In this document: in pieces, positions 5,103 to 6,655 of the stretch
Layout: every line of letters starts with the position of its first letter
How positions within the stretch are numbered: position 1 is the stretch's first letter
IMG/VR virus record: IMGVR_UViG_2597489885_000001
Span: 6,131-70,130 of that record
Strand: one strand, 5' to 3'
DNA length: 64,000 nucleotides
Source: a virus
Lineage: Duplodnaviria; Caudoviricetes
The notes under the pieces: model-generated
The model's database searches: none
What the model was told of the DNA's origin: nothing
Seen by the model: the letters and a program-made list of their open reading frames with translations, nothing else
Translations under genes and position numbers: made by a program

Positions 5103-5383
5103 ACTACGTAACCGCGGCACTGCCGCGCAAGAACCTGACCGAGGTGGAGCGCAAGTTCCTCAAGGTCGGAAACCGCATGCTGCTGGAACAGACCAATGGC
5201 CGCATTGGCTCGGCGGCGCTCATGGATATCGTGGCCGACTGGCACGGTTCCCGGGCAAGTGTCGGCTTTGAGCAGTTCGCCAAGAACTGGATCGCCGAGG
5301 GCAACGCCAAGAACAAGATCGCCGACAAGCTGCTCCGGGAGTTGTTCGGCATGGATGGACCGAAACCGAGGAAAGCGGCATGA
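5099..5383 (+). CDS. Conserved phage hypothetical protein
   Basis: GGAG RBS, ATG at 5099, coupled to Q. Confidence 0.7.
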   Translation: MNYVTAALPRKNLTEVERKFLKVGNRMLLEQTNGRIGSAALMDIVADWHGSRASVGFEQFAKNWIAEGNAKNKIADKLLRELFGMDGPKPRKAA

Positions 5384-5763
5384 ATACGAGAAAGCCGGCA
5401 CGTTTGCCGCTGGGCGACACTGAGTACATGCTTGAGCAGTGGGGGTTCTGGCGCCTGGATGGGATGGGGGTTCCAAGCTACGTTTCGCCTGCCTGGGCGA
5501 TCATGCGTGACGTGACCCCGTCATCAAGCAAGTCCTACGTCATTACCGACGAACTTGCAGCGGTGGTGGATGGGGCTGTTGCACGGCTGTGCAAGCGAGA
5601 TCCGCAAATGGGGGACTTCGTCTGGCTCTACTACGCAGCGAAGTGGCCAGCCAAGCGCATTGGGACCAAGCACGACATGAGCGAGGCTAGCGCCAGGCAA
5701 CTGATCAAGACTGGCGTAGGCTGGATTGATTGCGCGCTTGAGCGATTTCGTGAGGCAGCGTAA
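5380..5763 (+). CDS. Late-gene antiterminator Q
   Basis: LEQWG.W...ITDE.A..VD.AVARL...GVGWID pattern; position just upstream of promoter and terminator. Confidence 0.85.
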   Translation: MNTRKPARLPLGDTEYMLEQWGFWRLDGMGVPSYVSPAWAIMRDVTPSSSKSYVITDELAAVVDGAVARLCKRDPQMGDFVWLYYAAKWPAKRIGTKHDMSEASARQLIKTGVGWIDCALERFREAA

Positions 5764-5770
5764 AAAATAG

Positions 5771-5815
5771 TTGCACGCGCGGAATAGCCTTGATTTCATG
5801 GCACGGTGTTCAGCT
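5771..5815 (+). promoter_or_regulatory. Putative late promoter pR'/qut region
   Basis: TTGCAC -35-like hexamer immediately after the Q stop, followed by a terminator; -10 element poor. Confidence 0.45.
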
Positions 5816-5837
5816 TTTCAAGCACGACACCAAAGAG

Positions 5838-5866
5838 AAAGCCCGGCCATTGAGTCGGGCTTTTTT
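5838..5866 (+). terminator. Intrinsic terminator (tR'-like)
   Basis: AAAGCCCG-gccattgagt-CGGGCTTTTTT. Confidence 0.85.
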
Positions 5867-5875
5867 ATGCCTATC

Positions 5876-5972
5876 GCTTGGGTAGCTCAGTTGGTTAGAG
5901 CGCTCGGCCTGGTGCTGATGCACCGGTGTACGTGCTGAGAGGTCGGCGGTTCAACTCCGTCACCAAGCATCA
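5876..5972 (+). ncRNA. tRNA-like RNA (or pseudo-tRNA) with an expanded 27-nt anticodon loop
   Basis: Acceptor GCTTGGG/ACCAAGC (6/7 paired), D-arm GCTC-AGTTGGTTA-GAGC, stem CTCGG/CTGAG, variable AGGTC, T-arm GGCGG-TTCAACT-CCGTC, ends A-TCA. Confidence 0.75.
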
Positions 5973-5978
5973 ATTCCA

Positions 5979-6003
5979 AGACCCCGCCATCGAGCGGGGT
6001 TTT
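5979..6003 (+). terminator. Intrinsic terminator after the tRNA-like element
   Basis: AGACCCCGC-catcga-GCGGGGTTTT. Confidence 0.75.
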
Positions 6004-6022
6004 CTGTTTCTGGAGCACAGCA

Positions 6023-6655
6023 ATGCAGAGTCCTGACTTCGTTGAAGGTGTATCTGGCTGGCGGTTGAGCAAGGATCGCCTCGAGCTGTACGGCATGGCT
6101 ACCCCGGTAATCCTGGGCAGGCTCGATGCGCCTGAGCCAGAGAACGGTTCGGCCAGTGATCAGCCAAAGCCCTTCATCGTGGTCGATGGCGTGACCTACA
6201 TCAGCGAGGCCGAAGTAGAGCGCGCATCGATCACCAACGCGAAGATCGTAGCCGGGCTTGCAGAGCCGATCCGGCAGGGCGGCTTTTTCTCTGGCGGCTA
6301 CACCGGCGACGGCCCTGAGAATGGTTCGGGGGTGATTGCTCCGGGCACCGACAGGCTGTCCGATATGTGGTCCGTGAAAATGGAAGCCACGGCTGACGGG
6401 AAATATGTCGCCTCTGGCCTTGGGCTCGGAATCGAATCCCAGTTCCTGGTGGACGCTGGCCGCTTGGCAATCAATAACTCTGCCGAGAATGCCCCGCAGC
6501 CTGGTGATGCGCTGAAGGCTGGCGGCGTGACCTCAATGCTCGACGCCATGGCCAGCACGATCAGCGAAACATCACTCGGCAAGGATCTCGCCGCCCAGAT
6601 CCACGATGTTCTCCGCGCCGAGCTCAAGCAGGGCGGCATGCTGTACCGCGGCTGA
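6023..6655 (+). CDS. Hypothetical protein composed of tail-tip J/DUF1983-like motifs
   Basis: MWSVKM...GLGLGIE...SQFLVDAGRLAI, PFIVVDG and ISETSLGKDL segments align by eye with gpJ of this window. Confidence 0.75.
   Translation: MQSPDFVEGVSGWRLSKDRLELYGMATPVILGRLDAPEPENGSASDQPKPFIVVDGVTYISEAEVERASITNAKIVAGLAEPIRQGGFFSGGYTGDGPENGSGVIAPGTDRLSDMWSVKMEATADGKYVASGLGLGIESQFLVDAGRLAINNSAENAPQPGDALKAGGVTSMLDAMASTISETSLGKDLAAQIHDVLRAELKQGGMLYRG

Follow-up and report, generated by a model that had tools for sequence, protein, structure and literature searches.

The window analysed here, a 64,000-nt part of a 70-kb provirus record, carries behind its late antiterminator gene a gene for a tRNA-like RNA in which the body of a tRNA is intact and the anticodon arm has been rebuilt around an internal hairpin. 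Homologues of this RNA in other phages keep its structure by compensatory change, and it travels as part of a small cassette. We consider it likely that the RNA is a selected tRNA mimic that does not decode. As a full account, the best explanation we can offer is a functional mobile phage RNA gene whose product is a tRNA-derived mimic unable to decode, which in our judgement falls just short of an even chance; the further proposal that the RNA acts as a decoy is a tentative one. We found no description of such an RNA in the literature, and the family appears to be undescribed. The features on which the analysis draws are as follows.

5380-5763, + strand: gene for a Q-type late antiterminator (Pfam PF06530, Phage_antitermQ, E 2.3e-11).
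5764-5837, + strand: pR'-type leader with the putative late promoter and Q-loading region (conservation in 15 close Q relatives).
5838-5866, + strand: first intrinsic terminator, tR'-like, with an 11-bp stem and a U run (-17.4 kcal/mol, z -4.2).
5876-5969, + strand: tRNA-like RNA gene, from position 1 to discriminator A73 (ARAGORN, Rfam, covariation, and our own covariance model R1 at 112.6 bits).
5876-5995, + strand: mobile cassette of about 120 bp, comprising the RNA, a short trailer and most of the terminator (related soil-phage contigs).
5903-5939, + strand: rebuilt anticodon arm, a 6-bp stem with a stacked 7-bp hairpin (MFE folds, RNAalifold, covariation).
5927-5933, + strand: 7-nt 3' bulge UGUACGU, with the family consensus NN-(U/C)-A-C-G-U (gap-free alignment of eight lineages and of a ninth, L194).
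5978-6003, + strand: second intrinsic terminator, part of the cassette (terminator scan; -16.4 kcal/mol, z -3.95).

The original prediction, made from the letters of the sequence, described a tRNA-like RNA with a 27-nt anticodon loop and proposed tRNA-finder and covariance-model searches as a check. Every feature that it listed is present in the sequence, and ARAGORN and Rfam each place a tRNA at 5876-5969. This gene, called as tRNA-???, is the only one that ARAGORN reports in the 64-kb window, where it finds no tmRNA. In an Rfam search of the whole window, RF00005 (tRNA) matched the gene with 46.4 bits, compared to a gathering score of 29 (E 1e-06), and no other family, intron families included, rose above threshold. 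The RF00005 alignment covers 71 of 71 model positions and accommodates a 26-nt insertion within the anticodon loop. Outside that loop the window copy reads as a tRNA: its D-arm (GCUC/AGUUGGUUA/GAGC) and T-arm (GGCGG/UUCAACU/CCGUC) are canonical, the variable loop has 5 nt (AGGUC), and U8, A9 and G26 are present. The acceptor stem consists of six pairs and a G7.A66 mismatch, and A73 is followed directly by TCA (5970-5972), so that CCA is not encoded in this copy.

We scanned viral contigs with patterns built on the D-arm, the 3' half or the tRNA frame with a 27-nt loop, and recovered eight further distinct versions of the gene: L033 (=L034), L017, L023 (=L163), L164, L165 (=L170), L166 (=L168), L167 and L194. 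All eight align to the window copy without gaps over 94 nt, giving nine related lineages, drawn from viral contigs plus one isolate run. The isolate run contains an identical copy, with 0 changes in 97 nt versus six in about 300 nt of flank, a difference that is not significant. Among the homologues that were scanned with ARAGORN, which did not include L194, only L023 was called, and that without an anticodon. We detected no copy of the element at the 80 closest Q-gene loci, where a few instead hold an ordinary gene for tRNA-Ser, tRNA-Met or tRNA-Gly, and no homologue in GenBank phages or E. coli genomes. The pattern used for genomes and metagenomes requires TACGT, and the CACGT subfamily escapes it; within this limit to the TACGT form, no chromosomal tRNA among 185,579 species genomes carried the insert, and the genome and metagenome scans together returned only the source contigs of L023 and L138, and no new members.

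The L138 sequence (L138:12576-12663, =L160) comes from an AT-rich phage and has a 19-nt anticodon loop composed of UU, a 3-bp hairpin, AU and UACGU. It has a D-loop without GG and an acceptor stem of 9 bp. As its score of 45.5 bits with the family model R1 is no better than that of ordinary tRNAs, we treat it only as a possible distant member, which may be a distant relative or a convergent form.

Alignment of eight lineages showed that the bases that make tertiary contacts in tRNA are invariant (U8, A14, G15, G18, G19, A21, G26, G46, C48 and G53), as are T54, T55, C56, A58 and C61, and that the R15:Y48 contact is kept throughout. The cloverleaf of RF00005 is likewise complete, with covariation behind every helix that varies. 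What is missing is a 7-nt loop with U33 and a readable anticodon, since the loop has 27 nt in the GC-rich members and 19 nt in L138.

In the window copy, the 5-bp stem CUCGG/CUGAG encloses 27 nt (5908-5934) that include a 7-bp hairpin (5909-5926). To this picture, which is that of the original prediction, we add a sixth stem pair, 5908:5934, which covaries among the lineages. Because this pair exists, the arm forms a continuous 13-bp helix, in which a 6-bp stem (5903-5908 with 5934-5939) is stacked on the 7-bp hairpin (5909-5915 with 5920-5926) and a 7-nt bulge is left on the 3' side. RNAalifold, run unguided, returned the same 13-bp helix and 3' bulge, and single-sequence MFE folds agree on the arm in three lineages. 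The geometry is constant in the GC-rich members, with 6 bp, 7 bp, a 4-nt loop and a 7-nt bulge. Within this fixed frame, the tetraloop (UGAU at 5916-5919 in the window) and the 2-nt spacer that begins the bulge (UG, AA, CA, UA or UU) change in nearly every lineage, whereas the ACGU that ends the bulge is invariant in all nine GC-rich lineages, a conservation that is inflated in appearance because these lineages share ancestry. Directly 5' of ACGU, four lineages have U and five have C. The two nucleotides that open the hairpin are always Y-U, resembling positions 32 and 33 of a tRNA. In sequence, the bulge strand resembles a Val-type anticodon loop over its 3' two-thirds (N34-A35-C36-G37-U38).

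To assess selection on this structure, we used the alignment of eight sequences, with L194 left out. Standard pairs fill 95.3% of its cells, and 13 of the 29 pairs have changed on both sides, a number that is reached in 0 of 500 shuffles and that slid controls come nowhere near. Three pairs of the inserted hairpin carry double changes and two carry single compatible changes; in the anticodon stem, the second pair (29:63) switches from U-A to G-C, and the sixth pair (33:59) is C-G, G-C or U.G depending on the lineage. The D stem is invariant, covariation is seen in every other helix, and the wobble G.U pairs at 31:61 and 35:50 never vary. In the close pair L033 and L017, pairing is kept at all three stem substitutions. 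These comparisons bear out the proposal that the insert is structured and under selection, and they supply the covariation across homologous phages by which it was to be judged.

The same data remove plain decay, which the original prediction had allowed as a possible reading. A decaying tRNA pseudogene or a chance fold would account for the TCA in place of CCA and the G.A at 7:66 in the window copy, and for the rarity of the element in the genome and metagenome pattern scans (TACGT form only). However, nine lineages of identical length, the paired state of their stems and the Rfam E-value leave this explanation extremely improbable. As the homologues retain the hairpin and all arms through compensatory changes and do not decay at random, we conclude that, as far as the sequences tell, a decay product is effectively excluded.

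The position of the gene is that of the first RNA of a Q-dependent late transcript, as had been predicted, with the Q gene upstream and a strongly folding intrinsic terminator on either side. Relatives of this Q number 129 in viral contigs. The leader that follows Q holds TTGCAC (5771-5776) and TTTCAT (5794-5799) separated by 17 nt, and it probably contains the late promoter, although a consensus promoter scan made no call in it. It is 82% identical to that of Pseudomonas phage PseuP_224, and the large terminase shares 65% identity with its counterparts in Pseudomonas phages; judged by these two features, the phage backbone is Pseudomonas-like. The tRNA-like gene begins 9 nt past the first terminator, and this terminator is also present in soil relatives without the gene. 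Past the second terminator lie a tail-tip-like ORF, a holin, an HNH gene and a terminase. The first ORF past the cassette (6023-6655, 210 aa) matches the tail-tip fibre family PF09327 and is located far from the tail genes.

Related soil-phage contigs can be aligned with the window as far as 5876 and from 5996 onward, and unrelated DNA fills the interval. The element is always sense to transcription, and every family member is succeeded by an intrinsic terminator, in the other lineages behind a related trailer. Its surroundings otherwise differ: in other lineages it follows the Q-like phrog_3373 and precedes HNH and terminase genes, follows phrog_3412 and precedes holins, or is found between a terminase and a head gene or after head-completion genes. 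Overall, the cassette stands behind three different late-regulator families and once within a head-gene block, and in L194 the flank upstream is that of one lineage and the flank downstream that of a second. The gene past the terminator also differs by lineage (a tail-tip-like ORF, holins, unknown ORFs or a head protein), and an all-versus-all comparison of ORFs from all carrier loci found no specific gene common to the carriers, only ordinary phage genes. Taken together, these flanks indicate that the RNA is a horizontally mobile cassette present in several unrelated phage backbones. The site behind the tR'-like terminator (5867-6022 in the window; about 3480-3700 in L058-L073 and others) is a cargo slot. 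Fifteen close Q relatives have the leader and terminator in common and different DNA beyond in each, including tRNA-Ser(UGA), tRNA-Met, tRNA-Gly, small ORFs and AT-rich DNA.

This placement would also suit a cis-acting punctuation mark, in which RNase P and 3' processing split the pR' leader from the late mRNA, leaving behind a hairpin-protected mRNA end, and the RNA has no role in trans. In favor of this, the element stands after the leader terminator and ahead of the first late genes, with which it would be co-transcribed; the use of tRNA-like folds as processing signals is an established device, and the acceptor and T arms that the processing enzymes need are intact. These enzymes, however, ignore the anticodon arm, where the arm lengths, the sixth pair, the two G.U pairs and ACGU are strictly kept. 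In addition, close relatives do without the cassette or hold ordinary tRNAs or unrelated cargo in the slot, and L167 and L023 have the element in other parts of the late operon. We therefore regard punctuation as an unlikely explanation, and as the arm would be free to vary if the RNA were only a processing signal, we favor a non-decoding mimic.

A signal that acts as DNA is a further way to explain a small palindromic insert in a mobile segment. Here, the hairpin and YACGTR would be a recombination or protein-binding site, or a palindromic insertion in a dead tRNA gene; anticodon loops are classical integration sites, and the YACGTR motif is palindromic as DNA. In a dead host gene, however, one would not expect four arms and the tertiary-contact bases to be kept by compensatory change, and the conserved G.U pairs at 31:61 and 35:50 function in RNA and not in duplex DNA. 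As there are no target-site duplications at the element and it is always transcribed in the sense direction and has its own terminator, we consider a DNA-level site highly improbable.

To ask what amino acid, if any, such a gene could serve, we compared its body with 374 tRNAs from the fetched loci and E. coli, and found Ile, Asn, His, Val and Met tRNAs to be about equally similar. When introns are allowed, ARAGORN reads the gene as tRNA-Val(UAC) with a 6-bp stem and the loop C-U|intron|U-A-C-G-U. This raises the possibility of a tRNA-Val(UAC/CAC) whose 18-nt intron between positions 33 and 34 is cut out by an endonuclease and the halves joined by a ligase such as RtcB. The body is without flaw for a tRNA. 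Y32-U33 and A35-C36 do not vary, the wobble base is U or C, either of which gives a Val anticodon, and ordinary phage tRNA-Val genes in the same frame have the loops UUUACAC and UUCACAU. An alternative reading as tRNA-Arg(ACG), with a 20-nt insert at 32/33, was rejected, as it would place C at position 33 in five lineages, U at position 37 and a covarying Watson-Crick pair at 32:38.

Several observations argue against splicing. The insert has no group I core, and 18 nt is far too short for one. Neither is there a bulge-helix-bulge, as the unbroken 13-bp helix with one 7-nt bulge places the formal 5' junction inside the helix, and we know of no archaeal splicing endonuclease from bacteria. The spliced product would have a 6-bp anticodon stem and G37, where Val tRNAs (phage examples compared) carry A37, and to our knowledge its loop, Y-U-Y-A-C-G-U, occurs in no natural tRNA. 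The discriminator base A73 is a major determinant for ValRS in the identity of E. coli tRNA-Val, and this determinant is not kept, since the discriminator is A, G or C across lineages and is A in only two of them (the window and L164). CCA is encoded in about half of the lineages, the pair 7:66 is mismatched in six of eight and 49:65 in three of eight. Finally, no enzyme gene accompanies the cassette in the comparison of carrier ORFs, and the TACGT-form scan of species genomes described above is also evidence against an insert of this kind in host tRNAs. From these data, we regard a spliced tRNA-Val as unlikely, although it ranks first among the alternatives to a non-decoding mimic, followed in falling likelihood by punctuation of the late transcript, a base-pairing or dimerizing RNA, and a DNA-level site. 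Of the roles that had been proposed earlier, a mimic or decoy is what we infer to be the best fit, a processing signal alone leaves the exact conservation of the arm unexplained, and an unusual spliced tRNA is the one we favor least.

The acceptor end carries a further peculiarity. In L023, L033, L165, L166 and L167, positions -1 and 73 form a Watson-Crick pair (C:G or G:C) that covaries, and L023 lengthens this pairing by three more pairs; in the window (5875/5969) and L164 the two bases are C and A and are unpaired. The additional pair recalls the one found in tRNA-His. It could displace the site of RNase P cleavage, and the mature ends of the RNA are therefore only predicted.

The bulge can also be compared with a motif known from tRNA editing: the TadA substrate motif, derived from E. 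coli editing sites, is U-A-C-G in the loop of tRNA-Arg(ACG). Four of the GC-rich lineages, and also the distant L138, have UACG, and the other five have CACG; in each case the motif lies within the bulge and not in a 7-nt loop. Separately, the genome contigs L144, L157 and L158, from Thermodesulfovibrionales and Clostridia, encode tRNA-Arg(ACG) with the loop CUACGUA, which has U at position 37 in place of the usual purine.

As the 27-nt loop with its built-in hairpin leaves no usable anticodon, the tRNA-like RNA would not be expected to decode. Based on the layout of the late region, we propose that it is transcribed from the late promoter, in small amount by leakage through the first terminator and in much larger amount once Q renders the polymerase terminator-resistant. 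Because all nucleotides required for the L-shape are canonical, host tRNA enzymes would be expected to excise and stabilize the RNA, with RNase P acting at the 5' end, followed by 3' trimming and CCA addition. The product would offer a tRNA body and an anticodon-like strand on a rigid 13-bp helix to a protein that recognizes anticodon loops. Its side hairpin would keep the RNA off the ribosome and may block its cleavage. A partner that reads the anticodon region is suggested by the constant arm geometry and the unvarying bulge, and the variation at the acceptor end makes a synthetase or EF-Tu less plausible in this role. The most likely partner would be a tRNA-targeting nuclease of the host or of a competitor, for example a defence-system anticodon nuclease or a tRNase bacteriocin. 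Enzymes that modify tRNA are also candidates, though less likely ones. In such an interaction, the RNA could serve as a decoy or a tight-binding inhibitor, helping the phage or the lysogen. Any decoy must compete with cellular tRNA, which is in large excess and would outcompete it unless the decoy were bound far more tightly, and we found in the literature no demonstration of decoy or inhibitor action by any tRNA-like RNA.

A single-stranded bulge on a rigid helix could instead act on nucleic acid, as a regulatory RNA in which YACGU(G) is a seed for a target RNA or a kissing dimer and the body is a scaffold. tRNA scaffolds do stabilize RNAs, and when the base that follows the bulge is included, five lineages show the perfect palindrome CACGUG and three show UACGUG. 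A seed of four to six nucleotides is very short for specificity, however; L023 and L138 have UACGUC, in which the ends of the palindrome are broken, and the last G is taken up by the covarying sixth stem pair. We consider this function quite improbable.

Phage tRNA-like genes with altered anticodon arms recur in our set. L002:5269-5354 (=L030) and L048:2474-2556 share the same D- and T-arm and have an anticodon arm of the form UGAUCC-hairpin-GGGGAG, possibly kink-turn-like, and they make up a family distinct from the window element. Further genes with rebuilt arms are found at L015:4570-4665, L042:5575-5670, L039:2266-2348, L016:4082-4186, L040:2232-2320 and L047:6732-6834, with anticodon loops of 14 to more than 40 nt; the L039 gene, with a 10-bp arm and the loop UGCGCAC, is embedded among 20 clustered ordinary tRNA genes. 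The window family is distinct among these in its small insert and its retained anticodon-like strand. The recurrence of such genes suggests that phage tRNA-like genes with enlarged or rebuilt arms form a broad, poorly annotated class, and, as annotation pipelines (ARAGORN) miss them, the class may be much larger than is apparent. For the window family, the RNA would be a small, readily synthesized probe with which to fish out a host factor. We think it rather doubtful that it represents the first natural decoy or inhibitor RNA directed at a tRNA-targeting nuclease, its hairpin converting a cleavage-prone anticodon loop into a non-cleavable bait on a cassette exchanged among phages, or, less likely, that it contains the first protein-spliced mini-intron (33/34) of a bacterial-virus tRNA.

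Among known systems, bacterial tRNA genes with group I introns in the anticodon loop (PMC3984707; 10.1101/2020.01.27.920355) resemble the element in that an otherwise normal bacterial-type tRNA gene is interrupted in this loop. Those introns, however, are hundreds of nucleotides long (usually >200) and contain a catalytic core (P3-P9), whereas the insert of the element has 18-20 nt and no ribozyme fold. The spliced tRNAs of archaea and eukarya have two 3-nt bulges around a 4-bp helix and are cut within these bulges, a pattern that is absent from the element. YrlA Y RNAs (Rfam RF02553) are, like our proposed mimic, non-decoding tRNA mimics of bacteria and phages, but they are permuted, with a sealed acceptor end and a Ro-binding stem, while the ends of the element form an acceptor stem and there is no Ro helix; the Rfam search gave no Y RNA match, even at E up to 1. 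The RNAs of type III toxin-antitoxin systems (ToxI-like) differ in their tandem repeats and conserved toxin gene, as the element is single-copy and its next gene is variable. Phage T4 makes two stable tRNA-like RNAs, species 1 and 2, from its tRNA gene cluster, and their function is unknown. As small, stable, non-tRNA phage RNAs made via tRNA processing they are similar to the element, but by description they are set apart, being longer and lacking a cloverleaf with one rebuilt arm.

Closest in position are the phage tRNAs of the lambdoid slot, which share with the element the site after Q and tR', the strand, a full tRNA body and the expected processing by the host. They differ in that their 7:66 pair and discriminator are those of a charged tRNA, which the element does not keep. 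In recent work, the view of phage tRNA genes has been shifting from codon helpers to an arms race with tRNA-cleaving immunity. The T5 tRNA-Lys counters PARIS (PMC11464382), the T5 tRNA-Tyr counters retron Ec78 (10.1101/2023.03.15.532788), and phage tRNAs with nuclease-insensitive anticodon loops have been proposed to act against anticodon nucleases (PMC10264068). The element is like these anti-defence tRNAs in having an anticodon loop unlike that of the host and a proposed benefit against nucleases that read the loop. They, however, function in decoding, have loops of 7 nt and stand in for host tRNAs that have been cleaved, whereas the element, being presumably unable to decode, would have to act as a decoy or inhibitor. 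If so, this mimic would extend the picture of the arms race from replacement tRNAs to RNA decoys.
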